A DNA stretch of 56,217 nt, counting the filler, from Dimargaris cristalligena (Eukaryota), in the NCBI GenBank assembly GCA_003614675.1. It is 2 parts of 2 records of this genome, joined end to end, with 100 filler letters (N's around TTAATTAATTAA, not from the genome) between each part and the next. Parts side by side here need not be neighbours in the genome. Positions count along the whole stretch, not along the records: positions 28,183 to 56,217 come from ML002505.1; 1 more part is not named here. One strand, 5' to 3'. Below the pieces are notes generated by a model. That model saw nothing but the letters and a program-made list of their open reading frames with translations, was not told the origin of the DNA and did no database searches. Shown in pieces: positions 7,241 through 52,203 of this stretch (positions are counted from its first letter, which is position 1; each line of letters starts with the position of its first letter). Both the position numbers and the translations under genes were made by a program.

Positions 7241-7411
7241 GTAAGTATCGTATGCAGCGCCAACCCACTCACCTGCATAGGAAGGGAAAGGGGGAGGGTC
7301 TGTAATCCTATTCCCCACCCGGGGCAACTGCCTTACCACCCATCGGCTCGGATCCGCACCCCTCTCTAACCCCATTCTAATATCTATGCTATTTTCATCT
7401 TCCGCTCCCAG
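7241..7411 (+). other. Putative 5'-UTR intron of the C9-methyltransferase gene, ending immediately before the ATG
   Basis: Donor GTAAGT at 7241, branch-like TCTAAC near 7365, pyrimidine tract, acceptor CCCAG ending at 7411 directly followed by ATG 7412. Confidence 0.6.
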
Positions 7412-8806: not shown

Positions 8807-9734
8807 AATCCCGTCCCCTTTGTGCCTTTTCCTTACTCTACTTTACTTTAGTTTACTTGACTCTGTAGGGCTGTGTCCCCCTGTATTAGGCTTTGGGTGC
8901 ATCCCCATCCTTAGTTTTGTTTTGTTCTCCCTGTGGTTTATTTTACTAATCTGCTCGTTCGGCTGTACCTCCGTTGACGTGTGGGACTTGGTAGTGTGTC
9001 TATTGTTTTTGGGAGTTCATCCTTTTTCACTCCCCTTTTCTTTTAGTTTTTTTTTAAAAAAACGTATATCTATTGTTCAAACGTTGATAAAAGCTTGTTG
9101 ATTCACGCATAATCCCCCTTCCGATAGTGTGGGAGTGAGGTGGCCTGTTTGTTTGAGTATTAGGTAATGGATTTCCACCCCTGTTTTATACGGTAAATAC
9201 TGCCTTGGTCATCTTTCCCAATATTTAATGAATTAGGGCTAGTAGAGCCCACCCTGTGACTCGCGGGGGGGGGGGGCTCGCTAGGTTATATTAATCATTC
9301 ATCGGGTTGGGGGTGTCTGCCTGTACTGATTGGCGAACCATACCTGAGCCAAATCAGTGTATAATTCTATTGAATAGGCGTGGGAAAGCAGCTGGTCTGT
9401 ATTCACGTGATAGAACTTGAGGCCCCGATTACTTACTTACATTACCCATAACCCCAGCCATTCGAGTGAGTTGAAATGATGGCGTCATTGGCGGCTAAAT
9501 GGCCAATAACCAGAGCAGAGCCACTGTGGTTCTCCTAAATGGTGTGGGGGGTTGTAAGTTCAGAGCCAATTCAATTACGCGATTACGATTAGTAGAGGTA
9601 TATTAAACAAGTGGGGTAAATATTCCACGATTTATTTATTATACAATGTCGACAATTCGATACAGAAATTGAGCAGAGGTGGAGGGGGGAGTGGTTGGCG
9701 TCGGTCACAAAATATATAGTCCACCGATGGTTCC

Positions 9735-11831
9735 TTATAATTCGAGCGATGAAATATGTCGCTCGAGTTCTTGTGTCGAACCAATCGCCGCGGACCCTTG
9801 GGTGATATTCCGTTGCGCTTGCTGTAGGGCTACCTCGGTGATTTCCGGCAAATCACCCGGTACCACTACCGTTTCGACCTGGTACGACGGGGCCGGTGCT
9901 AGTAAAGGGGCACACATATCGATGGGTAGGTATTGTCCAAAGAGTTGGGTAAAGGCATCCCGCTCCTGGGTTTCGGTGGCATGGAGGGCGGCCAAATGAT
10001 GGGCGAATTCGGCGGCCATGCGGGCGTGTTGGTGTTGCACCTGGCGTCGCCGGTCAATTTCGACCAGCAGGTAGTCATAGGCCCGGGCGAACTCAGTGTA
10101 CCACGAGCGGAGGTTTCCGCATTCGGCGACTAAAAGTTCGGCACGGGTTTCCAGTGGAGCACCTGTGCCACCACCACCTCCCCCTACACTACTACTTCCT
10201 AGATCCGTCCCTTCGCCTTCGCGGAGGTCCGCCATGGATGGGCGGAGCAATGTGCTAAAGAGGCGGGTTATGGTGGGCGTAAACTCAAAAATGCGCTGCA
10301 GACCCCGCTTAAGATCCGCGTAGAAAAGTTGGTACTGATGGGTACGAATTTCCATCTCCTCCCGGATGGCCTGGATAAAAGCCAGTCCCTCGCGTAGTTC
10401 GTTCACAATAACGTCGGTTTCTTCGGCGTCCCGTTCGAGCACCGCGAGGTTTTCCTGCGTGAGCAGTGACGGGTCCTCGGCCACGAGCTGCATTTGTGAG
10501 GCATGGTGGGAGATAGACTCCAAGTCCCCCAACATGCGGTCGAGTTCGTCGGTTTGTTTGGCGCACTGGTGTTGGATGTGCTGTTGGTCGAGGGAGAGGT
10601 CTTCAAAGGAATCAAATTGGTCCAACTCAAGAGTCTGGAATTCCCGGTACGCCTGATCCACGGCCTGATTTGAGCGCTACATAGGGTTATGGTTGTTGGG
10701 GGGTTGAAAAATCAGATAAAATATAATTGGTTTATATAAAGGGGTAAGTGGCCCAGCGGATACCAAAATAATTACTGTGTGCCTCATATAAGATTGGACA
10801 GGTCGATGTTCTGCTTTAACCCAACGGAATGGGAATTTTAACCAAATACTTACCTCCAATTTTTGAATCGTTTCTTTGGCCTGGCCCCACACGGCCCGTA
10901 GACCTTCATCATCAATAAGATCGTACAGTGTCATGGGCTTAGCCGGTAAAATCGGACTGTTTTCGCGTGCATCCGGTGAAACATGGGTACCATTAGTCTG
11001 CGACAGACCATCCGTGCTATTGGACACTAGGCCGTTCGTTTTGGCGACTTTACTAGGGTTGCTTCTCGGTGGCTGTAGACAGGGCTCGACTTCTCTCTTT
11101 TGTAGCGTCTCGAGGGTTTCAAATAGTTCAGTGTTGATGGTTTCAAACTGCTCTATTTTATCCTAATTATATTGGTCCGCAGCCGAGATTATACATAAGC
11201 AGTAGATGGGATAGGCGCTAAATATATTAGATTGGGCAGCGGGGCCGGTGTCATTTTCGACCAATAGCGGATTTCATTGAAAATCGGCGAGCTTAGGATG
11301 CCTCGCGAAGGTGTTTCAAGGTAACCGCGAGAGCAGTGTCACTTGGTATTATAGGACTTACTTTAGCCATATTGTGAAGTTTGTCGTGGCTTTGCCGAAG
11401 TCCTGTCTCGATATTTTGTAGATACTACCATAGCCGGTAGGTGTCCACCCAATAGCCATTCCAAACCAAAGAAAAATAAAATAAGGTTAAGTCAGACGCT
11501 AAAGCATAAGTAGACGGGCTGAAACGCACGGTTGGCCTGGCCTCCCATCCCACTTTGCCAGGGGAAGGGAATGTGAATACTAAAAAAGGGCGAATAATTC
11601 CCAGGCCTCTGCATATTTCATAGAAGGGTCGGCCAGGTCCCCCCACCCACATACCTGAGACTGAGTAGTCCATTCGCGTCGTAGAAAACCGAGACGGGGA
11701 TTGAGTTCCTGGAGGGTTTCGGCGTGGTTCTGGGTAGCTTCGGTGTGTTGTTGGGCGTCAATGCACATTTCACGGGCCACTTCCAGCGCTTCAAGAGCTT
11801 CGGAGACCATGGTGGCGATGAACTCGGCCAT
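9735..11831 (-). CDS. ATG17: Autophagy scaffold Atg17, 4 exons (11831-11655, 11424-11362, 11162-10854, 10676-9735; about 496 aa)
   Basis: Three phase-0 GT-AG introns (GTATGT/GTAAGT donors, TAG acceptors) join the exons in frame. Atg17 signatures TLYDLIDDEGL, AYDYLLVEIDRRR and ERDAFTQLFGQYLPIDM; coiled-coil composition. Confidence 0.85.
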
Positions 11832-12673: not shown

Positions 12674-13789
12674 CTAGAGCTGAATCGCGTAGAGTAGGGC
12701 TGCATTGCCCAGTAAAAAGGTCAGCTGGAGCCACCCACCCATGCTACCATAGGACTGGCCGGCCGATGCAGTCGCCACCAGCGGTGTGTGGCTCTCTTTT
12801 GGCACATTGCTGGTCGCAGTATAATTGCCAAACAAAGTCGGCCGGGTCGAATTCATGGCCGTGGTGGTCGTATCCAAGGGGAAGTCGTCGGGATCCTCGC
12901 AAACATTGGTCGACCAGTCCCCCACGCTAAGGAGCTCCTCGTCCACGCCCAGCGTTTCCGTAATAAAGGGCAAATAATACGCGACGTGCGTGAAAAACCC
13001 CAAAGGGTCGGCCCCCCCGCAAGCCACGTATTTCTCAATGAGGGATCCCCCGTGGCTCGTAACGCCCACAATGGACCACCGATCGTCCCGCCGACCGAAC
13101 AGCGGGCCGCCGGCATCCCCACGGCAGGTGTCCTGGTTCTGCTTGAACGTGCCGCACACCAAATGGTTGTTGGAGCTGGTAAACCCACTGTCAATGAATT
13201 GGCACTTTTCACGGTCGTTGGATACCTTGACCGAGATTTGTTGAAGAGTTGCAGCAGCGGATTGGGCATTGTCGTTGGTGGTCCAGCCCCAACCGGTGGT
13301 GTTAAAAGTATCGTACTCGACCAGCATGGTGGTCTCAATGTACGCCGGCTGGATTTCGGGGGATACCGTAACTGTTTCGTTGAGTTCGATAAGGGCCAGG
13401 TCGTGGGTGAGCGTCGTGTAATTGTACTCGGGGTGAATGGTAACGTTGGCCGTGCTGAACCATTGCATACCCTCCAGTGTGGTGCTGCCCAGGCCAATGG
13501 ACAGGGAGCTGAGTGCAATCGGCTGGGTCTCGCCCCGGTTAAGAAGGCATTGGGCCGCCGTCACCACGTGTTTAAGGGTAGGGAGAAGGGTGCCTCCGCA
13601 GTAGGACTCGGCGTTAATTCCTGAGTCCTTGTTGCCCACGAATGCCATGAAGGGGAGCGGCAGTGGAACCACAGTGCCATCTAAAATGCGGCGGAAAGGC
13701 TTTACAGTTGAATAGGTAGCATTGACAGGAACTGCCACGATGTCGAGCAGGGCGGCGGCCCAAACCACTCCGGAAAATGCTGGTTTCAT
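12674..13789 (-). CDS. Trypsin-fold (peptidase S1A) non-peptidase homologue, secreted, probably GPI-anchored (371 aa)
   Basis: Signal peptide MKPAFSGVVWAAALL; activation-like site RR|ILDG; CGGTLL, HPEYN...HDLALIEL and GWG motifs. Catalytic motifs read TAAQC (His57 to Gln) and DTCRGDAGGP (Ser195 to Ala). Thr-rich linker and hydrophobic C-terminal tail. Confidence 0.88.
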   Translation of the reverse strand: MKPAFSGVVWAAALLDIVAVPVNATYSTVKPFRRILDGTVVPLPLPFMAFVGNKDSGINAESYCGGTLLPTLKHVVTAAQCLLNRGETQPIALSSLSIGLGSTTLEGMQWFSTANVTIHPEYNYTTLTHDLALIELNETVTVSPEIQPAYIETTMLVEYDTFNTTGWGWTTNDNAQSAAATLQQISVKVSNDREKCQFIDSGFTSSNNHLVCGTFKQNQDTCRGDAGGPLFGRRDDRWSIVGVTSHGGSLIEKYVACGGADPLGFFTHVAYYLPFITETLGVDEELLSVGDWSTNVCEDPDDFPLDTTTTAMNSTRPTLFGNYTATSNVPKESHTPLVATASAGQSYGSMGGWLQLTFLLGNAALLYAIQL

Positions 13790-16292
13790 TGGTGTTTTTT
13801 TTATATAAAAAAATGGAGTTAAAAGCGAGTTAAAAAAAGATAATGATGAAAATTGGATATCCAAGTGAAACCGGGAGGGAAGTAATGATGGGCCAGGTGG
13901 AATAAGGCCACTTACATGAGCAGAGGCAAAGTGAAAATATTAGTAAACATGATTAACATTTCCCAATGGTGGGCCAGGTGGGCAGTCATTTATACAGGAC
14001 CTGCTCCACATCGTTGGGGTCAAAAAGAGGCCAATATGGGAGGGGAGGGGGTAGAGAGAGGGAAAACGAGAATACATTGGGTGAAGCCGATCGTCTTTAA
14101 CCCCATATTAGTGCCCGTACCCCCCGGTCACAAATTGAAGCAGCTAGTCCCTGTTGGGTAAAGGGAAGGGTAATACCATCTATCAACGAAGTGAATATAA
14201 ACGAACACGTCGTTGGGCTGAAATAACTAAGACAACGCGACAAAGAATAAGTTCAACGAAAAGAACATCACTGGATTCTCGTTTATAGCCGTTGTTGGAA
14301 ATGACCAGCTCAAATCAAGGCAAGGGAGAAGGGCGGAAGGGAGAGACCCTCTCTCTTTTCGCTGCCCTGTTTTAGTGCCATTTCTCGTCAATTGACTAGA
14401 TAAGTGTTGGCGTGCAATTTAATACCCGAACCCCCCCCCTCATGTTTATAGCATTACGGAGAGGGACTAGTTCAATATGCGAGAGGAGAAGGGCGAATAA
14501 GTGGAGCTCGATGGTGCCTTCAAAGGCAGACTCGATACTATCCCGCCTCTCCCGTTGGCCCGTATTTTAAGGGACAATGTATCCTAAATAACATTGTTCC
14601 CCTTTACCTGTCGGGGGGATTTACTGGGGCAGATTTCGTTATCATCTCCATACCCATGCTACCCAAATGACCAATCCCACATACTGTACTTTCTCTTCTC
14701 TGCTCCCTCACCCGCCCACTCGTTCGTTCGTTCGCCCATCTGTCCATATACTCACCCCCTACTTCCCTTCCCTCCCTCTTCCTTGGGCCTGGCCCAAAAG
14801 CAAAGTGACAAAAGTGTAGGCGAATCGAGCGGGGAGTGGTCGATGGAGGAGGATTTGCGAGAGCCCTATTGGTCATCATTGTTCTTAAAAAAATATTAGG
14901 GGTAGGCGGAACGGTTAAAAGGGCGGAGAGCAAGTAGATCCTCGGAACTTTAGCTATTCGGGAGTTTCGTTCGTTAATTTATTTTTAAATAAGGACCACT
15001 GGAGCCGTCATTGTAAACTTACAGGGTTTAGCAACAATGGTTACTCATGTTCATTCGCGTATTGGACTGGGGAAAAGGAATTGCAGACAAGGGGGGGGGG
15101 GGTCGTTGAAAAATATATATATCGAACTTTGAAATCGAACCATCACCAATGGCCCACTATTGACGTCTACAAAAGCGAGCAGAACATTGGCATTCATTAA
15201 TATTCGCTTCTTCGTCTAAACAACAGTACTCGCATAGAGAATTCACCTAACTTTAGGGGGGGGATTTCATTAGGTACATTGGTTCTTGATAGTAGAAGGG
15301 ATGACCTACCCCCACCATCCGCAGTATGGGTTCTAAGTGGTTACCCCCTTTGGCTCTTCCTAAACCAAACTTCACTCGCCTCCCACTCTGTTCACTCCTT
15401 GCCCCATCTCCCCCATTCGATAGACTGAATTAGTATAGTGATCACTCTTCTCTAATAGGGATCGGCTCGACTGTCCCGTTAAGGTCAATATGTAACGATT
15501 ATATAAGTATGTTGAGTGTTCAAAATCGCCTCAGTCAATTGGCATATCATTGTCCCCTCCACTCCAGAGCCCAACTCTACTACGTCATAGTTACTAGCCG
15601 AGCGATAAAACCGTAAAACCTGAAAATCACCAATTCCATATCTACAGGTTGGAAAATCAGTTAGTTTGGCGAGACAATAGCGCTCTATATAAGGGATATG
15701 TTCAATCTGGCTATATAGTCAGTAATCCAATGACCAGGCCGGATCTTACCGGTTAATAATTCATGTTACAACGAGCAGAAATCCCTCCTTTGGCCCAGGT
15801 ATGGCTCGTAAACGACCGGGACTTCAGTGATGGATAAATAAGAACGGGCTGGGGTTATATGGGGGTTCATTGAGGAAATAAAATGTTAGAAAAGGCAACA
15901 TCGCTTATGTGTGTCTTCAAAATGACTGTAGAGGGGAAATTTGATTCAAATGTAACGATTGAAATGAAGCGCATGCGGTAGGTTAGTCAGAATATATTTT
16001 TCATCTAAATATGCACACTACCTAAGAGCTAAATTTTTGACGGTATGGCTAAATTGAGTGTGTCCTATATCCGACTATACTCTGAGTAATAATTATATTT
16101 CGGAACAACTCGCATAAAAAGATTAGCCAAATTACGTATAATGCACTTTTAAGCCCTATGAATCTGGCTCAAGCAGGCTCCGAGTTGAGGGTATATTTAG
16201 GTCCCTACGAAAAGAAAAGTGCTAAAATCACGAAGGGGTTGAAAAATGAAGGTGCGATTAATGATCTATTTAGACGAAATATTAATAATAAA

Positions 16293-16411
16293 AAGTTGTA
16301 GCATTGACTATTCCCAAGTGGTCACCCACCTCAGTACTAAATCAACTGATCGGGGCTTATCTTCGCAGATCTAACGGGATACGGAGCACATCCCGACATA
16401 TGGCCACAACT
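16293..16411 (-). rRNA. 5S rRNA gene, copy 2 (full length, about 119 nt)
   Basis: Same 5S motifs as copy 1 (7 differences over 116 nt), ending in a minus-strand TTTTT tract (16290-16294) typical of a Pol III terminator. Confidence 0.95.
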
Positions 16412-19010
16412 GATAAGTAGTAAATAATAGAGATCTTATTATTTAGTTATCAATAATATAGCTGCTTGATTTAATCGTAACTCAAAATTATTCGCATAGC
16501 GATCCGTAGCTTGGAAGCTCCTCCCATTAATATATGGCCATTAAGCTACCCTAGTTTTACTATTGGTATCCATTAGTGTCAATAATTTTTACATTAACTA
16601 GTTATTTTTTCATTAAAAATGCCTAATCTCATGAACAGAATTTGCGTTTTCTAGCTAGATTGCATTTTAAACCGCTCTAAAAATATGGGTGCTTGAAACG
16701 ACTCAATCGACTAACTGACCCATAATTCGGATTGTTAATGCTACCAACGGGCACCGCTCAATTCAAGTGGTTATACTGGTAGTTATATATTGGGCGATTA
16801 CATGGGCGGCCAAAAACGCGATGCCTGAACATACCACGCATTACTGAAAGTAACTGAGGAAAGTGAATTTCAACTTAGATGGCCTGGCTGGCAATGTATC
16901 CCATAAAGAGGTGAACCTGCTGCAGCTATTAATCTAGTAAGCAGATATCTCATCATATGTTCTGTTTCCATGTTTGAAATAGTGATGGCGAATTTTAATA
17001 CAGGTAGGTTCGGCGGGGGTGGGAAAGAGAGTAGCCGACAGGTAGTATGTAACAACTACTATAATATAGAAAGTGGTTATTGATCCCGGAATTAATGCGC
17101 ATCCGGGTCTCTGTCCTGACCAGAATCTTCTAAATCATCAAAATATGTTTTCTATACCATCGAGGCCAACATCTCTGGTAAAGACTAGACTGGTTTAAGG
17201 TCAGATGCCCACTACAGATATAGTGCATAAATGAAGATATAATACCAATCAGGTCACCCAAGTGATGCACAACTACGCCGTCCCTTGCCTACAGCTTCCT
17301 ACTTTCCGGTTGTTTCACGCTGAGAGTCGGTTCAATATCAACTGACGGCACACGCTCTGTTTTTTTTTTTTTTTGTAAAGACACCTGTCGCGTTGATATT
17401 AAAATTGAATGGATGTGCTATTGCGAACCAGACCACTCGAGGTATTTACGCCTCTATATCATCATATTACAAAACCGGCCATAGATCTACTGAGTTGCCC
17501 ATCCAATCCTCGAGATTTGCCCGCTAACATGATGGTATATCCTATTGCCTGGGCTATTTTCATAGTGATAGCCTCGCGCACTCCGTTATGTACGAAAAAT
17601 TGGTTTTACCAGGTCCAAACTTCGAGCCCTAATAAATTTAGGCCGGTTCTAATAGGGCCAATTAGCCCTAGAGAATATGGGCGAAAATCAGTCTAACTGT
17701 ATAGGGTTTTATATGATATGTGTATAGGAACATAGGTGGGTGATTCGTATTTAACCAGCGGTATTCTTTACAAACCCATTATGTTAATAGAGGGGATATA
17801 CCATTTTTTCCGTAGAAATATTACTTTCCCCGAAATAGAAAGGATAAATTTTAGTGCCAAAACATGTTTCTCTATCCTTCTCCTTTTATTCCCTCCTACT
17901 AGCCGGTCCTATTTGGTTTACTTTATTATTATAGTCAAGATATATCTCTGTCGTGTTCTTTGCACATGTGCACGACGACTTTTCGGCTATTGCAGACTGT
18001 GGACTTGTCCATTGTGCGAAATAAGTAACGCTAATAAATAACCAAAAGTCGATAGCATCTATTAACGATAATTTACCTCACCCAACGGACTTCTCATTAT
18101 GCAGTCTGAATGAACTTCTCCCATATTCTTCATCCAGGTGGGCGATTATTGACTGCTCTGCGAATAGTTCCTGGTCTACATCAAAGCGCTAACCCCGAAC
18201 CAATGTAATTAGGCACCCCCGCTTTCCACAGTCCGAAGTCCAGACTAGTACTTCATTCCCGAGTATTCCCACAGGCCACTGCTGTTCACCTTATCTTGCT
18301 GAGCTTTTTTCATGACGAGTTTAGTCAAATGGCGATCGACTGTATCTACTGTATCTACTATATCCACTGTTCCAATGATTGCCTTTTCCTCGCATGCCCA
18401 TCGTTAGTTAGGCTGGTCCATGTATAGGTTGGCCAGCCCCATTGCCTAGAGGCGAGTAATGAAAGTATATTCTAGGTGGAGTCGGCTGGCGCCTAACGGC
18501 CCATGTTATTATTTGGTTGCCATAGTCCATTCCCAAAGTTACTCGCCTTTTTTTTTTACTCAACCATCCCTGTAGTATCCATATAGCCCCACGCTGTAAA
18601 CTTAAAATGGGGAGGGGGGTCAATGTGGGTTGGTTGGCTATACTATTCGATTCACGGCAACCCAGAGTGGCTTATTATATTAATAGGAGAGGCCCCCTTA
18701 ATGGTGCCTTTAATTGAAACTAAGGCAGTACCATGCCATTTGATATACCCCATGCTTCTCCCCGTTTTCTTGCCAAGTCAAATTATAATTTCTAGACTAG
18801 ATTTTTGCCCACCAGAGGGGCAGGCTCCTCTATTTTCTCGTTACCATTCTCTTGATACACCGGTTATATCTGTCTTCTGTTGAGCTTATTTCCAGTCCCC
18901 ATTATTTGCAGAATACCAACCCAGGTACAATATTTGGCCCGGCTTGATTACGTGCCCTGGTGTAGTTTCGTATGTAATTCCTGTTGCTTCCGCCTGAATC
19001 AGCTTTCACT

Positions 19011-20023
19011 ATGGATGGGGAGATGACTATTGCCAGCCAATATCTGCTAAAGCGCTGTTGGATTGCCTTATCCATTTCGATGGTGCTGTCGCTGGGTTCT
19101 TACAACCTATATCATTCATGCCTTACCCTTGCCCACAATCGTCAAATTATCCATGTGCTTACCTTTTTAATGAACCTGTCCTGCGTTATAATAGGCATTA
19201 TTTTAAGTTTATATGAAACCGCCTATTCCTCCTGCATGGTTTATGCTGCATCAATTGACGCAATCTACTTGAGCTGCTCTATGTTTAGCGGGCTCATTTT
19301 ACTCACCAAGTCCTACTATGCCAGTAACTTCAATCGCAAAATTCTTTACCCTTTGGCTGTATCTCAAACGGCGACCATTGTAGTTCTCAGCTATGCGCTT
19401 TCCCAAATTACCGTCTACCAGTCCACTCGGGTCCTCTTGTGTGAAATCAAACTGAAACAATCGAGTTTTTTAACCGCCATGTCCATGGAGTTTGTGCTCA
19501 ATTTTAGCTACTCGGCACTGTTTCTATTCTATATTTACCAAGCCAACCTCCAGTTTGACTCGTCCCTCTACTCTGTGCTGTTTCGTGACGGTATGATTTA
19601 CTGGTTGATCACTTCCATCTTCCCCGTTATCATTGGTATGGCCGCTTTTATTCCGACCCTTGCTCGCAACATGAGCACTCTGGTCGTTTTCTATAGTAAG
19701 TACGAATCTTGAATTTATATGTAATTAACACTCACGCTAACTCGAATCCCCCCTTCCAGACAGCTGTGGTGGTTGTGGCCGTATTTGGATACCCAGGTTT
19801 CTTTGATTCTAAGGAATGCTTTTAATGCTATGGTCCACTGTTGCTATATAACTTTTGCCGTGCTTTTGTTACCTATTCGGAAGTCATCGGCACTACCTGC
19901 ATCATTACTTGGCAATTGAGCATTGCTCGACGAGAAAGAATCCAGAAAAAGCGAAATACACTCCTACCATCCTCGCAAAATGGCCACAGCCCCCACACCT
20001 GCGAAAATAATGTTGATTTTTAA
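19011..20023 (+). CDS. Orphan seven-transmembrane (GPCR-like) protein; exons about 19011-19695 and 19884-20023
   Basis: Six hydrophobic segments plus the start of a seventh in exon 1. GTAAGT donor at 19696; splicing to the AAG ending at 19883 completes TM7 (VVFYIIGTTCIITWQL) followed by a basic helix (ARRERIQKKR). Cys at the top of TM3 (SSCMV) and in ECL2 (LLCEIK); SVLFRDGMIYW before TM6. The start codon and 3' splice site are uncertain. Confidence 0.65.
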
Positions 20024-26192: not shown

Positions 26193-28025
26193 GTATAGGG
26201 TGTATGATTTGGGTGGTGTGGGTTACTTAAGTTGCCATTGCTTTCTAACCCTCACAATTGGCGAATACCACTGTGAAGGCTTCGGCAGAGCAAAATGCCA
26301 GAATGGAAGCTGAAATAAATCAATATTAGGAGCCCTCTAACTCCCAAGCCGCTTTTTTCAGGTACCCTTTTATTCCAACTAGCAGACATTCTTCCCTAGT
26401 TAGTTTGGAAATAAATTAGTCTGGAAGAACAGGGATTAAGTTCCCAGAACCCAGCCACTTTACCCAGCACTCTAAATCAAAATATAGCTTAAACCTTGGG
26501 ATTTATATTCATATGTATATTTATATTTATATTTATTTATTGGGATTGATAGAAAGAGGTTGGATGTTTATCACACGGCTATTCGCCCCTGCCGACCTGG
26601 TCATTTTATTCGGAAATAAAACACTTTGAATAACGCGTACAGTATTACCGTGTTGGGTTAGATTATCGGGAAAAAGTAGACTCGGTGTCCTACTGGTGCC
26701 CTGGCTATTCAATTTTCCTTGAGCGCCCTTTGCTAACCCCACGCTGCCCAAGATCCGTGTAGTTGGGATTCTATGGGTTGTGGGGTCTAGGGGATACATT
26801 ATAATGTAATAATATAGTGGTGATACGAATATGGGCGTAGCTGCATAGTGATAGTTACAATACGGTTATTATCATTATTATTACTATTATTACTATTAAC
26901 AGTCGCGTTTAAATGATAGTGGTGGAATAGGGGGAGGTGGGAGAGAGCGAGGGGTGTACCACCCGCTCTTTACTAATCCCCTATCGCAACCAGCAGCAGC
27001 AATCCATGAACATCACCAGGGTCGATTATGGAGATGCGGACTTTGTCTAACTGGTTTAGAATAGCCAGACGAATGTTCATTGGTCGCCCCCTCAATTAAT
27101 TGACATTATAGGGTGGTAATGGTCGATGTATACCTTTGACCAACAGCGGATCCTGAGGTCATCTCTTCTTCTTCCATCCTACCCCAGAAAGGGTGGCTTC
27201 TGTCCCCTCCCTCTACATCGCCCGCCTCCCGAATACAATACCTGTGGGGAGAAGAGAAGAATAGGAGGGGTTCCATTTCCCGTCTATAGACCGTCCCCAC
27301 TACACCGCCTTTGTTGGCTGCTAAGTACGGAATACCTGAGCTAGGATGACCACCAAGGTTATGTATAGGGCAGGCATGAATAATTCGGCTTGACAGATCA
27401 TTTTTAGATACAATCAAGGGAGAATATTCATAGAGTGCTTCATCGACGGCCACACATTTCTTCATTCACTATAACGATGGTATAGGCTCTTGGGGGAGGG
27501 AGGCCATCATTGATATTCCGTTTGAAGTATTTTAGCGTCGCCCATCCACGGCGACAACCCTTAGTGGGTGGTTTATATAGCGGATCGCTCCCCCGATGGT
27601 CGTGTGGGCTATACTAGATATCGGTTGTCCGTATTACTTACTCCATTTTATGCATAACTCTTTCTCTAGCTACATCACCCCGCCCTACTATTCTGCTGGG
27701 CTTTGTATAATTGGCAGTTTCGTATTCATTCTATTTCATTACAAGGTTCCCAGGCCCTACAGCAGTAGCTCGTTCCTGGCTTAATTAAACTGGGTGTGTT
27801 TTATCTGTTATTATTATTATATTAGTGTTCGACGGCGGTGGCTCTGTATCTGCATGCACGACGTGAGTTAGTGTGCGGTTAAGCTTCTGCTTCATTGTAA
27901 ACCCGGCCTCTAAAGTTTGGCCTGATTGGCTGCTTTGTAAATTCGGGAGTCTAATAGAATAGGATTGCTAATCACTTGTGGCCTTGACTTGCCACCACCC
28001 AATCCCGTTGAATTTATGTGGCGAG

Positions 28026-28026
<1 letters not shown>

Positions 28027-28082
<56 letters not shown>
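28027..28082. repeat. (CT)n microsatellite at the contig end
   Basis: Perfect CT run running into the N gap. Confidence 0.9.
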
Positions 28083-28182
28083 NNNNNNNNNNNNNNNNNN
28101 NNNNNNNNNNNNNNNNNNNNNNNNNNTTAATTAATTAANNNNNNNNNNNNNNNNNNNNNNNNNNNNNNNNNNNNNNNNNNNN
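28083..28182. other. Artificial 100-nt contig-joining spacer (N44-TTAATTAATTAA-N44)
   Basis: Symmetric N runs flank a 12-mer (28127-28138) that gives stop codons in all six frames, a standard pseudomolecule linker. Confidence 0.95.
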
Positions 28183-30882
28183 TTTCCCATACACGTATAA
28201 TGTAAACCCTTATATAGCTGGGCCGAATTTCACCCATATATTGATAGTAGACTTAGTATGAGCCTAAACATGCAGAACAGTAGAATGTATAAATTATTGA
28301 TACATTATAGTGAATAATAGAACTGTCAGATGACATGTATTTTTTTAGCTAAGGTGGAGAAGCTGTTGGTTTAATGACCACTGGCTTATCACGTATTCGA
28401 TTCCGGAAAAATGCTATCTCGTTCTCCAAAGAAAATTTGACCTGAAAGGGGTATATTGTAGTGGGTCCCTGATATGGAAGAATGGATAGTGGCACACAAA
28501 AAATTGAAGACCAGCTGAGATTGCTACATTTACCCACTTTGCTCTAGGAGGGCCAAATCATACCCCAATTTGTAGGATGGGTTAGTTTGCACCATCACGA
28601 CGGTGACCACCCAGAAACTAAGGTGGGACTGGGTCGCGTCAATGAAGGCACACCGCCGAGTACTCTTGCTATAATCACCACCACTAAACAGACAGTGAAC
28701 AGCCTTAAACCCCCAATTGGCTAACGTATCAATATGTAGTACTATGAGACGGTCGCATTGTAGCTTCGAATATTTAGCCATCTGTTCAGCCGATTGTTAC
28801 GATGACAAATCTACTATTATCAAGTATTTGAATGGTCCGATTGATATGGCAATTCTGGTGAAATACTTACATGCCTCCGAGAAGCTTGTACCTCGATTAC
28901 TGTTTTCAATATTGTTCAAATCACCATGTGTTATGCCAGTTTTATGACGCCTATTTGAAATGTGGAATGTAATTTGGCATATTTAAATAAATTATTTGTC
29001 TCTCTAGTTCAGGGAACCCTCCGCGAAACAGATCGTGAAATTATGTTCATACCTTTCCATCCCGTTTACGATTTATAATCCTAGTGTTATAATTGGTTAT
29101 TGAGAAAAATATCTTGTTCATAAATTCGGCATATTCTACCCATTTATTGATAATTTTAACAGTTCGATTGTTATTATGCCCCACCCCTCATTTGTTTCTT
29201 CTGGGGCCAATGTCCCTCTCTGTCGGCCAGGAGACACCTCCCATCGATGCCAGTACGCCCTACACCAAAACCTGCTATGCCCAGTCGCATCCCCAAACCT
29301 AGCGCTGGATGGACGAAGCCTGGCGGCAATACATATATGTAGTGCCACCTAGCGACACAATTTCACGTCCCCAACTATGGACAGCATGTTCTCTTCAGTA
29401 AGGGATAGAAAAAGGCGCTATATTTAGCCACCACTCCATTACTGGCCGCATTTCTGCCATGTGCCGCCTTGTAGGAGGACAAGTAGGTGTGTGACGTTTT
29501 ACAAATCCATGGCTACCGTTCAATATATATTATTAATGCGTCTATCTACGGGACTACCATTACCATTGACTCATTCCATCACCGCCGCTTTGCATTCTTC
29601 TGGGGCTGCTCGGTTTTACTTCACTACACCATGATCGCACTTAGGTTTCAATGGCCATGCCACTCCTTTTTGAATGGTGTCCTCTGTCAGCAAGTAAAAG
29701 AGATCACCATCACTAACAACCACGATTCGTAACATTGTACTTTTAATTGCCTTGTTCTCCCCCCCCCCATTTATTTACATATATTAGCATTGCATACTCG
29801 CAATAAACCTTGGTCTCAACAACATTAGTGAGACTGACTAAAATGTGTTTCTTGAGGAGCTCTTATACCGTTGCAAGGTGAATTGTTCCCCTTTGATTAG
29901 GCCATTCGAACCAAGGCTTGCCGTGCACCGGCGACCCTATTCTAACAATAATCGTCATGAATTTACATTTCCGACTTTGTGCTTGAGAATCCAATTCACC
30001 TTTCTCTTTCATTTTCCGACCACCTTTTCTTTTTTTGGACTTTTAGCGTCTCACTATCAATTAACGGCCTAAACCAACTAATCACAAATTAATAAAAATA
30101 GCTGGCGGAATTTCTTCCCTTGGAGACGTGTCGTCGGCTATCCTTGGGATTTCATCGTTGACAGTCTTATCTTACTTTATCACTCTTTAATTATTTACTG
30201 GTTATTATCGTTCTTATTCCCAGTTTAGTTATGATAGCCACATTTCCTTCTTTGATACTGGGTTCGAAACTGCGTCCCATTGGCACCAGTCTGCGCCAAT
30301 TCAGTGCAGTGATCGCGTCCATTTCTGTAGCTGTATCCTCCAACTCAATGATCGCCCCGTCTTCTACCGCTAGGGAGCTGCCCTCAACTTCTTTGGGCTG
30401 TGCCAATAGCGAGGCAACGTCCTCCTTCCGAACCCCGAAGTCCAGCCATTTGAGGCCGGACTCCAGCAGCAATACATGTACGAATAGTAAAAATGGACAA
30501 TCAGAATTAGACCGGCCGTCACTTTCGTGTTAGAGCAATAGAATGGTCGACTGAGCACTTTCTTTGAACTGCATTTATAGGATAGACGATATTCTCTGAC
30601 TTTTCTGAAGCCGACGGGCATTGCTATAAAAGTCCCGAGATTCCCCAGCACCATTTCCAACCATATCCCAACCACACCTTCCTCTTCCCCACTGTTTCAT
30701 TTACAGCCCCCGATCATTTTTTCATTGACACAGGTTTTCATACATATATATATACTACATCGTTTGTCCAAGTCACATCTACTCTAACTTCTCAACATTC
30801 ACTTGACTGCAACAGCCTCCACTTCCGCTCCAGCACCATCTTCAACTCCCGCCCCATCCATCTACCCACCGCCCCTGCCACC

Positions 30883-31365
30883 ATGTTGAGTATTAAATTG
30901 ACCGCCACCTTACTTGTCCTGGCCCTCGTAGCTGGCAGTCTTACCGGCAGCCGGGCCTCTTTGCCATATGCCCCCGTTCAGAATGATCGGAACTTGGTGT
31001 CTCTGCACCGTCGCTCTGGGTGGAAAAGGCTTTTTGACTTTTTAAAACCAATTGCGATTAAATCCGTAAAGGACGTCGCCCCCTAAGACAAAATACCCGG
31101 TATAGTGGGCAACATTTACGAGATCTGTAAAACAAACCCGACTGGTTGTACCGCTCAAGATAGGGAAGTTACTAGGAATGTACAGGCCATTCTAAAGGGC
31201 GAGAGTGCGGCTACGATCGCTAAAAACATTGTAGACTATGCTAAATTGACGGAGTTCAAAGTGTTCAACACGGAATGGGCCGAGGCGATGACCCAACTGC
31301 GTGAAGACATGGCAAAGAATGCAGGCACAAACGCGCCCACTCCGGCCGGTCCGAGAAAAACTTAA
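30883..31365 (+). CDS. Small secreted prepro-protein interrupted by one in-frame TAA at 31084-31086 (67-aa product, or 160 aa if read through / ancestral)
   Basis: GCCACCATG start context, TA-rich box near 30745, signal peptide MLSIKLTATLLVLALVAG, dibasic RR and KR sites. ORFs 30883-31086 and 31105-31365 are in the same frame, separated only by the TAA and six sense codons (DKIPGI). Confidence 0.65.
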
Positions 31366-32200
31366 ACATGTGCTTCTTCGATTGGGTTAGGAGGACTCGT
31401 TGCTTACTTACCACCATACCCCCGGTTGTTTCTTGGACACCTTCCCTTCTTTAATCTTCCGCTTATCTGGTCCCTCCTGCAATCTTGTTTGAATAAAATG
31501 TTTTGTACCTCAAACTAATGACGATAATGCTTTTTGCCAATGCCTCATGAAAACAACACTGGGTACTGCCTAGATGTTCTTCATCGCAAATAACAGTAGG
31601 TGAGGCAAGTTCCTGGCCAATGTATAACTTGGGTGAATGTGCGAGTAGTACCACAGTGTAGCCAATTTTTAAAACATATGGAAGAGGTTCAACTAAGTTG
31701 TATAACGAAAAACTCGTTGGAGGAGGTAAACACTACTAGTTTACAATGAATCCTCCACCTATTTTCACATATACATATATAACCTGGCAAATGGGAAAAC
31801 AAGTGGGAATCCAGTATAAATTGGAACGGCCAAGTCCTAGCCAAAACGCTATTCGACATAGCATCTCACTCAAAAACGGATCAATTGGCGCGGGATCCTT
31901 GTCTAAAAATGGAAAGGGGGGAATATTCGTTAATTTGCATTTGTTTATGCCTCCACGAAGCTGCTCCAATTATTATCGAATGATAAGCATTATCTATAGC
32001 AGCATATAATCTAGCAAAGATCTATTTATGTAGAATAAAGTAGTACGAATTATAAAACCCGGCTAGGATGTGCCCCATTAGCGCGTTTCATTTGGGCGAA
32101 ATTGAAATTGAAAAATATAGATTGATGAGAACAGATGATAATAGTACGAGTAGCCGTCTTAGTTGCTAGAGACGGAGCGGAAATGGCTAAATCCGGGCAT

Positions 32201-33703
32201 TTAATTGAGCCAGGATTTTTCGGTGGGCGCGCCCCACTTGGTGGTCACCTTACGACGGTAAGTGAAGAATTCAATTCCACCATCGCCGGTAATATCCATA
32301 TCACCGAACTTGCTGGCCTCAATCCCGCCGAAGGAGAAGGGTTCGCGTGGGACTGGGACCCCGATATTGACACCGATCATGCCGGCCCGGAAGCGCTGGG
32401 TATAGTGTTGGGCCACCGCCCCGCTGGAGGTATAGATGCAAGCGGCATTGCCGTAGGGGTTGCTGTTCTCGATTTCCAGGGCCGCTTCACCGGAGGGGCA
32501 TTCCAGGATGGATAGGACGGGGCCGAAGATTTCGTCATGGAGGGCCACATCGGTCTTGTGGTGGTGGCGAATCACGGTAGGGCCGATCCACGAGCCCCCG
32601 CTGGCCTGGGCCCGCTCGGTAAAGGCGGCGTTAAGGCGGCCATCGACCAGGATTTCGGCCCCGGCCTGTTCGGAACGAACAATGTAGTCCAGGATGCGGG
32701 CGCGCGACGCTTCATCAATGACCGGGCCGATTTCACGGGGGCCCGAGCCCGGTTGGAGGGCCACCGTTTTGGCCACGATAGACGCGACCAATTCGGCCTG
32801 GGCGCCCACGGTCAGAAGGACTGAGGCGGCCATGCAGCGTTGGCCGGAACAGCCCGTGAAGGAATTGACCACATCCTGGGCGGTCAGCTCGGTGTCGCAG
32901 TCGGGGGCGGCCACCAGGTGGTTTTTGGCCCCGCCCAAGGCTAAGCAGCGCTTATTGAGGCGGCGGCATTGCTGGGAGACTAGTTCGGCCACATGGGTGG
33001 TCCCTACAAACGTCACGGCGCGGACGGCGGAGTGTTCCAGGAGCGGGGGCACCACCTGTTTATCACCGTGCACCAGACTCAGGACCCCGGGGGGAAAGAT
33101 GGTACCGGCCAACTGGGCGACCCGGTCCATCGTGAGGGGCACCTTCTCCGATGGTTTGAGGACCATGGTATTACCACAGCCGATGGCGATGGGCAGCGTC
33201 CAGAAGGGCACCATAAAAGGGAAATTAAAGGGCACGATACTGACCACCACGCCCAGGGGCACCCGGGTGTCCTGGCAAAACACGCCGCGCGATACTTCCA
33301 GGTTACGCCCGGTCGCTAGCTGAGGCAAACTAATAGCGTATTCGAGGGTTTCAAGGCCCTTTTTGATTTCCCCAACGGCTTCCTCGTAGGTCTTGCCGTG
33401 CTCCAAAACCACCAGCTTGGCCAGCTCATCCAAATGGGCGGCCAGGGTCTGGTGGAAACGGAGCAGGTACTGGGCACGGTCCTTGAAGGTACGGGAGCTC
33501 CAGGCGGGGAAGGCACTCTCGGCGCTGCTGACGGCCTCATTGACATCGACGGCCTGGGAAAGGGGCACTTCGGCAATGAGTTGGCCCGAGAGCGGGGTGG
33601 TGACGGGGAGGAACTGGGCCTCCGACGGGGCCACCAGACTCGCCTGTGACTGGTTGTTAATCCAGTTGGCTAGGCGGGTGACGGAGGGAGAAGTCGGGTC
33701 CAT
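32201..33703 (-). CDS. Methylmalonate/malonate-semialdehyde dehydrogenase (ALDH6/MmsA-IolA family, 500 aa)
   Basis: ALDH motifs PFNFPFMVPFW, LKPSEKVP, FVGTT, GGAKNH, GQRCMA (catalytic Cys), EIFGPVL and GVNIGVPVPREPFSFGG. GAKNH and GQRCMA are characteristic of ALDH6. First ATG at 33703. Confidence 0.92.
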   Translation of the reverse strand: MDPTSPSVTRLANWINNQSQASLVAPSEAQFLPVTTPLSGQLIAEVPLSQAVDVNEAVSSAESAFPAWSSRTFKDRAQYLLRFHQTLAAHLDELAKLVVLEHGKTYEEAVGEIKKGLETLEYAISLPQLATGRNLEVSRGVFCQDTRVPLGVVVSIVPFNFPFMVPFWTLPIAIGCGNTMVLKPSEKVPLTMDRVAQLAGTIFPPGVLSLVHGDKQVVPPLLEHSAVRAVTFVGTTHVAELVSQQCRRLNKRCLALGGAKNHLVAAPDCDTELTAQDVVNSFTGCSGQRCMAASVLLTVGAQAELVASIVAKTVALQPGSGPREIGPVIDEASRARILDYIVRSEQAGAEILVDGRLNAAFTERAQASGGSWIGPTVIRHHHKTDVALHDEIFGPVLSILECPSGEAALEIENSNPYGNAACIYTSSGAVAQHYTQRFRAGMIGVNIGVPVPREPFSFGGIEASKFGDMDITGDGGIEFFTYRRKVTTKWGAPTEKSWLN

Positions 33704-47702: not shown

Positions 47703-50700
47703 CTAGATATCACCCATTTCGTCCTCGGAATCAGACACAAGGTTGTCGTCATCCTCTAGTGCTGGCACAAAGGAGTTGTAGAGTGCGAAGTAGACTTTCC
47801 AGTTGTGGGAGGCAACCCGATGCAGCTTCTGGGCCAAGTTAACCACCTCCCCCGCCAGGCTGGTGATGCACAATTGCCGGAAAAGAGATTGCAGTTCCTG
47901 GGATAGAGCTGGGGCAGGGAGCGGCTTGAAGGTAGTGGAAGACGAAGTAGTATGCCCAGACGCCAAGGTTGATAATGATGTCGACGACGAGCCAGCTGAG
48001 CCAGCATCAGAGGAGGCGGTCACGGACGGGGTGGGAACATCCGTAGGCAGGGGCTTGGTGGGGAAGCCCTTGCTAAACGAGGCGTGCCAGAGGGTCTTGC
48101 CCAGAGCGGTGATGATACGCGCATGCATCAGCTTGAAAATGGCGCTGTTGTAAACAAGCGCTCCTTGGAGCAAATGCCGGAATGTCAGTCGCTCACTTTC
48201 GGTGACTGGCTTACCACGGATAACGGTGATATGCTGGAGCAATAATTCAACAATATGATCAAAAGTGACCGGGGGGAGGGCGGAAGCGGGTGTACGGGAT
48301 GGCAAGGTCGATTTATGACCATTCCCACCGCGACTGTGGCCCGCGGTCGCACCAGTACGGGTTGGGGTGGAGGCTGGAAGGTTGGTGAGACGGTTGACCT
48401 CGCCCACACTGCGGTTGGATGGACGTTGTGAGGCTGTGGTCGAGTTGACCGCCCAAGCTACGCGGCTGCCTCCACCCACCTGCTGCGATTGCTGGGGAAG
48501 GCCGGGGTGGGATGCACCATTCGCAGTAGCACTCACTGAGCCATCGAGAGGGCTCAAAAGTGTCCACAGGTCGTTCTTGACCCGTAGAATATGGGCCTGT
48601 AAGTGCTCGTCGTCCGTTTGGGTACCGTCAGCATGCTTGGTGGGGGGTAAAAAGGCGTGGACCCCCGTAGGGCGCAGGAAGGTGGTTATGGCCTGCCGGT
48701 AGATGAGCAGAATGATGGACATGACGTAGATATTGTGCCACTCATTGCGCAGAAGGTGCAGTCGGCTAATATCGAGGTGGAAAGTCTCGGGGATGTGCTC
48801 AGCCCATCGGCGATCGTCCGATACTAGGAACTGGACAATCCCGTCTAGAAATAGGGCCAGGCGATTGGAATTGGTCTCGGCAATGGGGTTGCTACTAGGG
48901 TCCAGCAGCTGAGTCCACCAGGCCTTGGTACGCGTCACTGATAGAGTGCCGGCTTTAATCAACCCAGACATGTAAGTCCATTCGAAGTGGGGCGCGGAGG
49001 CCACTAACTGGGGGCGCATGGTGCGAACCTGGTGGTTGGCTAGATCCAGCCGCATCAGTTCCAATAACTCAAAGCAGCGTTTAAGGGTCAGGGTGAAATC
49101 CTTACGGTGCACAGCCCTCAGGATGCTGTCGATAAGGGGATCCCGTACCGGTGCACAGTGACGCTTCAAGACGGCCGTGATGTAGCAAACGATACCTACC
49201 ACATCGAAAACGCCGTGCTGCAACTGCTGGTGGATCAGGCGTACGTCCAGGTGGGTAGTTAGATCCTTGCGTAAGTCCATGTCGTGGGTCGCTAGCATTT
49301 CAATCATAATCTCCCGAATCTCACTCATCATGACCACGATTTTACTGGTACCTAAGAACATAGTGGTCCGGCTGGGAGTTTTGGGGGTCGATTTGTCTCC
49401 CGTGGCGGCCGGGGTCAAAAGGCCCTTGAGCTGGTGGAGTTCCATTTCGACCGAATACCAAAACCCGGCAGCATCGCGTTCCTTTATCCGACCGAGGTCA
49501 CCAAAGTTATTGGGGCGGAACTCGAGGTTGGACTCCATCACAATATCATGCCGAAGTTGAACATTATTGATAATCGAGTTGAGGCTGAGCTCCCGCAAGG
49601 AGAATCGATTGATGGGCGGAAGGAAAGACGAGGAAGTACCAAGTGGGGCAGGAGCAGGGGCAGCTTGACTGCCTGCCCCAAATTGGTGGAATTGGTGCCG
49701 GTGATTGCGGTGCGACTTGCTCTGGCTTGACGGGAAATTGCGACGATGGCGACTCAATGACGGAGGACCGGGTGCCTTGACTGATGCGGCAGACGACGAT
49801 GAGCCCGTAGTATTGGCAACGGAGGCTCTCGGGGCGGATTGGGGCATGCCTCGATTGGAAGCAGCAGGAGTCTGGATGTCCTTGGGAGAAGACTTATCAC
49901 TTTGGTTATTGTTTGCCGACCTGGTAAGTGGTGTGGCCAAGGAGGGCACTGGCTTAGGGGACGGGGGTGAATAAGACAATGGACAACCACGGTGGGCCAC
50001 TGGCGTTTCATGGAAAGGGGTGGCCACTGATATTGATTCACTTGGTGCACCTGCCGCGTGAGGAGATGAAGTGGGAGACAGGGGAAGCCCGTCCGACTCG
50101 CGCAGCGTCAGAATCTCTGATCGCGAAGAACGGTGGTGAAGTGATGGACGAGCTGCGGGGGTTGACCCTACCTGTACCTCCACAAGTCGATGGGCATGAA
50201 TAGCGGGTTCGTGGGCAGCGGAATGCGCATCGGATGAAGCATTGACTGCGTAATCCTTGGTCGGACTGGCCGCCAGGGGGGAGCTGGCCGTTGGTGTAGG
50301 GGGGGCTGGAAGTCATAAACACACCGCCATTGGTCTGGGCCAAAGTGGATCGACTGGATGGACCCGATACGGGGCCAATCCCTGGAGAGCGCAGGCGGGA
50401 TACTTTGGAAGGGATGGTCATCCGATGGACTCGGGCCACTTTAGGGAGCAGGCCAATAATTTCGTCGGAGGTGCTAAATAAAGTGGAATGATTACGCTTA
50501 CGCTGACCCAGCTCTAGCGCGGGTGGAGGGGAAGGGGATACTTCGGCGGGACGGGTTTGGGCCAGGTGGTCAAGAATAGGAGGAAGGGAGGTGGTGGCAG
50601 TTTGACCACTGCGACTCTCCATGACTGGCAGGGGAGGCTGGGAAAAATGGAGAGAAGACAAGTCGGAATTAGAGGCGGAGCCGGAGGTGGGAAGGTCGTT

Positions 50701-52203
50701 GGCGGCCGTCCCCGGATGAAAACCATAACTATTTATATCCAAAGAGAGGTGGGAAGGTTTGGGCCGGGAAGGCTTGCTAATACACAGCCGACGGATGCGG
50801 AATGGCAGCGAGGCGGAGGAGTTGGAGGTCGACAGGGCTGGTGCAGCAGGGAGGGTCGAGGAGGGGGCATGTTTAGCGGCGTACGTATGCAAGGCTCTTC
50901 TTACGAAGTCCCTGGAGTTTAAGGAGGAGGCGGTACCCTCACGCGCGGGGCTCCGGGGGGCTGATGTGGTTACCATGGACGAGACGGGGTCACCAGGTTG
51001 GCGCAGAAGTGGGAGGCCGCTTGCGCTGTCCCCTTTCTGGCGTCTCCTGACACGAACCCGCTGAGCAACTTTGCGCTGTAAACTGAATAGTAGTGCGGGG
51101 GAGGTGCGTCTCAGCGAAAGGTAGCAGAAAGCCTTCGGCGTTGGTAATTGGCGGGAGTCAGGGGAAGCCCTAGTGGGGAAGAAGGGTTGCCGTTGCACCT
51201 GGCAGTGAACCGAATTGGATGGATAGGGCTTTGCCTTGAGCGACCGGCGGGAGCTGTACCTATTAGCAGTACCAGCAGTTAGAATAACAATGTGGGACCG
51301 ATAGCCACGGTAACGCCGTACCTGGACAGACTGTGCATCGCCCTTCGCCGACGCTGTTGACGATAACCGGGCAAGGCCCAATGTCACTGGCCCCGCGGGG
51401 TGGGAACCTGCAGGCGAGCGTAAACAACGCCGGAGGAGGCGGGCCCCGTGGCGGTGGAAAAGTTGAACACAGCCACTGGACGGGGCAGTGGGGTCAACAA
51501 CCGCTGGTTCGCCCCACTGATTCCGGGCCTTTTGGGCGAGAGGTCCGTTTTTCCGGTAGGGCCGGGACGTTGTGACCAACCGACCCGCGGCTAAGAGACC
51601 GGCCACAATAGAGGAGGGGTGGGGAGCGGAGGAAGTCGAGGTACCCTCGGTCTCATCGGGCCGGGAGTTTCCCGCAGAAACCGTGGTCTTATTGGGGGTA
51701 GTAGCTGATGCTGACAGGGATATCCCCAAGGGTAAAGGGGAAGACGGCAGGGACGACGAAAGCGAAACACTGGAGCTACCCGAGTGGAACATGGGACGTG
51801 GTGAGGATATGGATAGCCCCTGACTGTTCCTGGTATTGGGGGAGGAGCCGCAGGCAGGGGAAAGTGGCCGTGTGGTGGTGTTGGTTGTAGCAACAGTGCC
51901 GGTGGACGGCGGCGGCAGTGATCCACTATTACCCCGCTGGGTGTTGCCACCACTATGGCTTAGTCGACTATGTGGGGAGGGAGTCGCACTGGCAGGCCCT
52001 GAAGCGGAACCCACAGATCCAGAGGAAGTCGATGGGGAGGACAGGGGGCTAGATGATGCGAGGCCATCATTGGACTGGGAGTTACCAGATGGCGTATGGA
52101 AAGGGGACCGGTTATTCGGGAGGGCGGCGGCCGCTTGCAGCTGGGAGAGGTCGGTATTGCCGAGTGCGCTTTGCCCTTCACTCTTATGAATGGCTCGTGA
52201 CAT
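47703..52203 (-). CDS. TCP11/Sok1-family protein with very long low-complexity N-terminus; encoded in two frames joined near 50300 (intron, frameshift or assembly indel)
   Basis: The C-terminal frame has Sok1/TCP11 motifs LPPINRFSLRELSL..IINNVQLRHDIV, LEFRPN, LIHQQLQHGVFD, LKRHCAPVRD, LLELMRLDLANHQ and IPETFHLDISRL. That frame has no ATG before the domain and is closed upstream by a TGA at about 50312. An upstream stop-free frame starts at ATG 52203 (MSRAIHKSEG). Confidence 0.8.

Follow-up and report, generated by a model that had tools for sequence, protein, structure and literature searches.

The reading frame at 30883-31365 and its features

The window analysed here, a stretch of 56,217 nucleotides from the genome of the fungus Dimargaris cristalligena, carries on its plus strand a 67-codon open reading frame that starts with the ATG at 30883 and ends with the TAA at 31084-31086, as an earlier note on this DNA had described. 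Beyond that TAA the same frame is open for another 92 codons, up to a second TAA at 31363-31365. The features of the locus are listed below. Motifs, layouts and stops were read directly from the sequence, and the helices are predictions from low-confidence models.

30625-30632 (+): box TATAAAAG, candidate core promoter element, 251 nt 5' of the ATG
About 30744-30754 (upstream of the ATG): (AT)n run
30877-30885 (+): start context GCCACCATG, with the first in-frame ATG after an upstream stop
30883-30957 (+): codons 1-25, signal-peptide-like by n/h/c layout, likely cleavage after S-R-A
30958-31014 (+): codons 26-44, putative pro-region ending in L41-H-R-R44 (Kex2-type RR plus LxxR motif; predicted cleavage)
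31015-31083 (+): codons 45-67, cationic segment of 23 residues, predicted to form helix 1 of the mature part
31084-31086 (+): in-frame TAA at codon 68, probable premature stop; Tyr in the protein of the other assembly
31087-31362 (+): codons 69-160, probable remaining coding sequence with four predicted helices, two Cys spaced as C-x6-C and a tail rich in Pro and Thr (identical to protein P0002 at all 92 residues; codon log-odds)
31126-31128 (+): Cys82, forming the C-x6-C pair with Cys89
31147-31149 (+): Cys89, forming the C-x6-C pair with Cys82
31363-31365 (+): TAA, probable natural stop of the 160-codon gene
31492-31497 (+): AATAAA, candidate polyadenylation signal, 127 nt past the distal stop and 406 nt past the premature one

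The N-terminal layout is largely as the earlier note had it. Residues 1-25 resemble a signal peptide, with Lys at position 5, a hydrophobic core of 13 residues and S-R-A at positions -3 to -1, and to this extent the product looks secreted. The proposed Kex2-type site is present as a motif (L-H-R-R at the end of a short pro-region), and directly after the RR lies the cationic tail of 23 residues (nt 31015-31083), with five Lys or Arg, two Asp and an internal KR.

No ATG occurs anywhere in 30584-30882. That the 251-nt leader is free of ATG is unremarkable because this stretch contains only 8% G; 1192 of 5000 shuffles of it likewise lacked an ATG. On the opposite strand of the locus only short ORFs of 30 and 50 aa were found, with codon scores of at most 0.04, and an Rfam scan of both strands of 29500-32300 gave no matches at E ≤ 0.1.

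Both sides of the stop look coding in one frame

An open run as long as the 92 codons behind the TAA at 31084-31086 follows only 15 of the 1286 stops in the presumed non-coding parts of the window. A codon log-odds score, trained on nine Pfam-supported ORFs of the window, gave in-frame values per codon of +0.227 for the half before the stop and +0.195 for the half after it, with values of at most 0.04 in the other five frames. Both halves score above all 242 presumed non-coding windows (maximum 0.086) but below the 25th percentile (0.332) of 143 coding windows, for which the 5th percentile was 0.043 and the mean 0.442. The pre-stop and post-stop halves thus look coding in one frame, toward the low end of the coding range.

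A protein from another assembly reads through the stop

We searched 5.8 billion clustered proteins with the read-through translation, in which the stop was replaced by X. Among 135 candidates a single protein appeared at E ≤ 0.01, namely P0002 (160 aa, E = 8e-98), which is 'hypothetical protein H4R33_001003 [Dimargaris cristalligena]' from another assembly of the species. More than one isolate of Dimargaris cristalligena has been sequenced, according to the available portion of PMC9866270. When placed on the window by tblastn, P0002 is colinear with 30883-31362, without gaps and with 158 of 160 residues identical. The window and P0002 differ at two residues only: Ala66 in the window is Thr66 in P0002, and the TAA at codon 68 is Tyr68. 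It should be kept in mind that P0002, the sole homologue behind the 160-codon model, comes from automated gene prediction in the same species. Nor can the complete identity across the 92 codons past the stop be taken as proof of constraint, because the divergence between the two assemblies elsewhere offers no yardstick.

We regard it as probable, with a good margin of confidence, that the locus is a single-exon gene of 160 codons (30883-31365, plus strand) which encodes a small secreted protein specific to the Dimargaris cristalligena lineage and which is interrupted here by a premature stop at codon 68. The gene copy in the window would then be a nonsense allele, either as a young pseudogene or as a null that segregates, or else contain a base-call error, because a colinear protein reads Tyr at the TAA and both halves are coding-type in that frame. 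The AATAAA past the distal stop also favours the 160-codon model, since the premature stop lies 406 nt away from it. The statement of the earlier note that this is a real gene is therefore borne out at the strength of 'probably', and what was called a 23-residue "peptide" most likely represents helix 1 of a larger protein.

The possibility that the draft is wrong at the TAA, through faulty base calling or assembly, and that the gene is intact in the organism is real but clearly the minor one; it is counted within the truncated-gene reading and takes up roughly a third of the probability given to it. Consistent with such an error, this is a draft window with two N runs, at 28083-28126 and 28139-28182, and both differences from P0002 fall within 9 nt, which would suit a mistake confined to this spot, or else one complex event. 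Against it, substitution errors are rare in finished consensus sequence, and no other known gene of the window contains a bare in-frame stop. A scan for in-frame stops flanked by coding-like open frames returned five positions in the window, four of which are antisense to known genes. Since 31084 is the sole position remaining, the sequence is not generally riddled with nonsense errors.

The two differences lie at window positions 31078 and 31086, 8 nt apart and beside a run of five C. By our own arithmetic, two random positions among 160 would fall two codons apart in about 2.5% of cases. A66T and the change of the stop to Tyr68 may represent a single complex mutation or a local error. The two N runs, of 44 bases each with 12 bases between them, are situated some 2.7 kb upstream of the gene, where the sequence is AT-rich, and are taken as scaffold gaps.

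Alternatively, the TAA might be spliced out, by an in-frame intron of 57 nt (GTAAAG at 31066 to GAG at 31122), giving a protein of 141 residues, or by an intron of 40 nt (31066-31105, ending in TATAG), giving a frame-shifted protein of 90 residues. Both candidates came from an enumeration of GT..AG pairs. The 57-nt candidate has a fair donor, a branch-point-like CTAAG overlaps the stop, and introns with in-frame stops do occur in the window, as in the 99-nt GTAATT...TAG intron of an ATG17-like gene. However, the model in the other assembly is unspliced and colinear with the window, the GAG acceptor of the 57-nt option is unusual, and lengths of 57 and 40 nt are far below the 99 nt of the sole delimited intron. 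Moreover, the would-be intron encodes the beginning of the protein's most amphipathic helix, and the frames that the 40-nt option would reach score as non-coding (-0.86 and -0.60). Splicing of the TAA is very improbable. The ATG17-like autophagy gene that served as yardstick lies at 9735-11162 on the minus strand and is split by its 99-nt intron (10775-10677), which contains an in-frame stop and shows a GTAATT donor, a TAG acceptor and a CTGAT branch-like motif; it is the only intron that we delimited.

Reassignment of the stop codon was rejected, as the gene itself ends in TAA and TAA closes six of the nine long training frames, although some of these frame ends may be intron boundaries and not true stops. 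TAA followed by G is a strong terminator, and programmed read-through is unlikely here, with no read-through motif after the stop.

The intact protein is probably an orphan with five predicted amphipathic helices

Judged by sequence searches, the intact protein appears to be an orphan small secreted protein that has no credible homologue outside Dimargaris cristalligena. For the 67-aa first half, Pfam returned no families at E ≤ 1. On the 92-aa second half DUF3865 was disregarded (E = 0.16, 12.1 bits where the cutoff is 31.6), as was a RidA protein (E = 1.2), the sole sequence match in the PDB at E ≤ 10. A HMMER scan of 1.84 billion representatives yielded three proteins at E ≤ 0.001, one of which is the query itself. 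The other two were rejected as chance matches: P0003 (440 aa) is a translated tandem repeat whose seven matches are all to one short motif, and P0004 is a bacterial repeat surface protein of 2754 aa. The whole protein found no usable match in the ESM Atlas, with a recognition value of 1737 compared to a benchmark of 2300 that 91 of 100 known-family proteins reached. No paralogue of the gene was found within the window.

The neighbouring gene offers a comparison. An aldehyde dehydrogenase gene at 32201-33703 on the minus strand, intron-less, 500 aa long and convergent with the target gene, is of the methylmalonate-semialdehyde dehydrogenase type (PF00171, E = 2e-113). Its best matches are in Dispira simplex and Tieghemiomyces parasiticus, at only 76%, and no Dimargaris cristalligena protein is found among the best 120 of the 7823 proteins at E ≤ 1e-100; the same collection does hold P0002, the Dimargaris cristalligena homologue of the target gene. 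Since the aldehyde dehydrogenase keeps 76% identity in these other Dimargaritales while the target gene has no detectable relative there, the latter would be a fast-evolving or young orphan. The early-diverging fungal source named in the earlier note agrees with both the Dimargaris cristalligena origin of the best match and the Dispira and Tieghemiomyces affinity of the adjoining gene.

AlphaFold2 models calculated without an alignment were all-helical but of low confidence, with a mean pLDDT of 43.3 for the full protein and 49.2 for residues 45-160, and a compact fold is for this reason not established. In the full model the cationic segment is helical from residue 47 to residue 61, and in the model of the mature part from 46 to 61, both with low confidence. 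A Foldseek search of the PDB with the model of residues 45-160 gave no matches at E ≤ 0.001; the generic helical bundles that it listed (best E = 0.73) are meaningless at such model quality. Computed apart from the models, the helical hydrophobic moment along the protein (windows of 18 residues) peaks five times, where the windows begin at residues 46, 66-67, 88-89, 107 and 128, with values of 0.48, 0.57, 0.44, 0.37 and 0.47 in that order. These peaks coincide with five of the six helices of the full-length model and with all five of the mature-part model. The 23-residue segment is thus one predicted amphipathic helix among five, and is weaker than the second (0.48 versus 0.57). The only two Cys residues of the protein are both encoded past the premature stop; spaced as C-x6-C, they fall at the turn that links predicted helices two and three, an arrangement that fits a secreted folded domain.

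The lack of relatives has also to be weighed as a sign that there is no gene at all, and that a predictor annotated in the other assembly a chance open frame with an accidental signal-peptide-like start. The absence of homologues outside the species, of Pfam families and of PDB sequence or fold matches would all be expected of such a frame, as would an Atlas recognition below the benchmark and a codon score in the lowest quarter of coding windows. On the other hand, the frame is open over 160 codons in the other assembly, both of its halves outscore every one of the 242 non-coding windows, a canonical signal-peptide layout at its start is followed by five regularly spaced amphipathic helices, and a TATA box and AATAAA stand at sensible distances. 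Taken together, we consider a chance frame improbable and retain the truncated 160-codon gene as the preferred reading.

The proposed reading of the cationic segment as an antimicrobial peptide

The earlier note had proposed that the 67-codon ORF is a functional gene from which Kex2 releases a cationic amphipathic, membrane-active peptide of 23 residues, or of 18 residues if the internal KR is also cut. The ORF, the RR, the KR and the net charge of +3 on the 23-mer are real. The amphipathic character that was claimed is only moderately borne out: the helical hydrophobic moment of the 23-mer is 0.39-0.43, a value reached by 3.1% (Eisenberg) or 6.1% (Fauchere-Pliska) of 5000 shuffles, while the 18-mer after the KR is unremarkable, with a net charge of +1 and a moment that 14-25% of shuffles attain. 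A proline mid-helix also speaks against the peptide. With regard to the likeness to frog peptides, the compositional part stands, as the nearest Atlas feature clusters of the 23-mer include dermaseptin (0.84) and a frog antimicrobial-peptide cluster (0.80). These values do not go further, since Atlas scores below 0.9 count as 'a lead only', shuffled proteins reach 0.8 a third of the time and the feature search is uncalibrated for parts of proteins; nor does the 67-aa ORF belong to any Pfam family at E ≤ 1.

The coding-type frame goes on for 92 codons, and the other assembly reads through the stop with Tyr, so that the 23-residue peptide is not upheld as an end product: its sole homologue has Tyr at the stop position, followed by 92 residues. 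In the intact allele, 93 further residues (Tyr68 and the 92 after it) would follow the segment without a dibasic site where the two join, and only in the truncated allele of the window would the segment formally be an end product. There, the early stop would leave a 3' UTR of about 400 nt. A family of short precursors was also looked for: a search with the 67-aa ORF among proteins of 36-118 residues gave one candidate and none at E ≤ 0.1, and paralogues that share the prepro region but carry variable mature peptides were found neither in the window nor in the protein collections. The earlier note had itself named, as an outcome that would speak against the peptide, homologues in which the segment is the first helix of a globular protein; the larger protein is indeed found, whereas 'globular' is not secured by models of low confidence. 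We therefore hold it to be very improbable that the 67-codon ORF is a functional peptide gene in this strain.

If the TAA is real in the strain, the truncated ORF would nevertheless encode the prepro-peptide that was described, as a putative product. In the boldest version, the TAA would be a real segregating allele and kexin would free a membrane-active cationic helix of 23 residues that acts against the host fungus or competing microbes. This is a long shot. Were it true, a peptide toxin would have arisen when a young orphan gene was truncated; in a milder form, the N-terminal helix of the intact protein would be the membrane-active part of a new mycoparasite effector.

Other genes and composition of the window

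Two secreted-type enzymes are encoded on the minus strand of the window, a GH16 glycoside hydrolase in a long ORF at 872-2497 (E = 4e-29) and a trypsin-domain protein in a long ORF at 12674-13939 (E = 3e-30). Enzymes of these types could act on the wall and the proteins of a host fungus. Also on the minus strand, ORFs of 869 codons (47703-50312) and 815 codons (50038-52485) overlap by 275 nt in different frames and may be joined by an intron or a frameshift; the downstream ORF of this pair is Tcp11-like. Pfam gave no family at E ≤ 0.001 for several long frames, between 234 and 815 codons in length (6109-6813, 7235-8842 and 50038-52485 on the minus strand, 18978-19712 on the plus strand), and these may be further lineage-specific genes. 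AT-rich islands with a GC content of 0.39-0.40 occupy 4001-6000, 16001-18000 and 28001-30000 and separate gene-rich blocks of GC 0.50-0.60.

Proposed working of the intact protein and its meaning

On the preferred reading, the intact protein would be secreted co-translationally by means of a signal peptide of about residues 1-25, after which a Golgi kexin (a Kex2-like protease) probably cuts off the pro-region of about 19 residues at L-H-R-R44. The mature part of about 116 residues is predicted to consist of five amphipathic helices in a helical bundle with a Pro/Thr-rich tail, in which a Cys82-x6-Cys89 disulfide probably staples the turn between helices 2 and 3. From the allele in the window, translation would end after the first helix and leave a 3' UTR of about 400 nt, and this allele is expected to be null or near-null. 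Given that Dimargaris cristalligena parasitises other fungi by means of haustoria and that secreted-type GH16 and trypsin genes are present in the window, the protein may plausibly act at the host interface, as a putative effector toward the host fungus.

To our knowledge, almost nothing is known about the effectors of haustorial mycoparasites, and the gene is a candidate for such work. It is also a possible case of a young, species-restricted gene with a null allele, and it illustrates that draft sequence with a premature stop may pass for the gene of a peptide precursor. As it stands the finding matters little, as the annotation of another assembly already lists the 160-aa protein as hypothetical and orphan small secreted proteins are abundant in zygomycete genomes, going by the available part of PMC9391592.

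Comparison with known systems

With the frog skin precursors of aurein/citropin and dermaseptin, the 23-mer shares a cationic composition rich in Leu, Phe, Lys and Ile. The Dimargaris ORF has no prepro region in common with these precursors, and common ancestry of frog peptides and a fungal orphan is implausible.

Candidalysin/Ece1 and the Kex2-processed repeat proteins (KEPs) have dibasic sites behind a signal peptide that could free a short peptide, as the Dimargaris protein has behind its signal-peptide-like segment, and KEPs carry several repeated peptide cores that are each flanked by Kex2 sites (as described in the accessible parts of PMC6339444, PMC9769878 and PMC7329392). The Dimargaris protein differs: its dibasic sites are a single RR, a single KR five residues away from it and a C-terminal RK, and no repeated core is visible; because repeated cores are lacking, it is not a KEP or an Ece1-like polyprotein. 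The difference from candidalysin/Ece1 is also that the segment in the intact allele would not be freed at its C-terminal side. The HMMER scan of 1.84 billion representatives showed no similarity to KEP or Ece1 members.

Another parallel is offered by secreted effectors of plant-pathogenic fungi with a Kex2-processed pro-domain (K2PP), such as SnTox3, ToxA and SIX1/4/6. The in-silico criteria for this class, in the portion of PMC8528282 that is available, are that KR, RR or LxxR occurs within the N-terminal half and that the region before this motif is poor in secondary structure. L41-H-R-R44 of the 160 residues supplies both RR and LxxR in the first half (PMC8528282, same portion), and residues 1-35 are coil in the low-confidence full model. 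As that portion presents them, these effectors have an architecture that the intact 160-residue form would share: a putative signal peptide, next a short N-terminal pro-region, then a Kex2 motif that falls in the first half, and finally a folded mature domain. There is no sequence similarity between them, and the Dimargaris protein is predicted to be all-helical and has only two Cys. K2PP effectors belong to plant pathogens, whereas the hosts in the case of Dimargaris are fungi, and for its protein both processing and effector activity are putative.

The most general comparison is that with the small secreted proteins (SSPs) of zygomycetes, for which we rely on the available part of Chang et al. 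(PMC9391592). There, SSPs are defined as secreted proteins of less than 300 aa with no enzyme domain, and 47,494 of them are reported from 132 genomes; 74% are in non-singleton groups, more than two-thirds of these groups have no Pfam similarity, and related species have few SSP groups in common. The Dimargaris protein, with 160 aa and no catalytic domain by Pfam, falls within this definition. As zygomycete SSPs are, in that account, mostly devoid of Pfam similarity and little shared between species, an orphan of this sort seems to be the norm. The Dimargaris protein is thus the same in kind as other zygomycete SSPs, and its peculiarity is that, of the two sequences available, one carries a premature stop.
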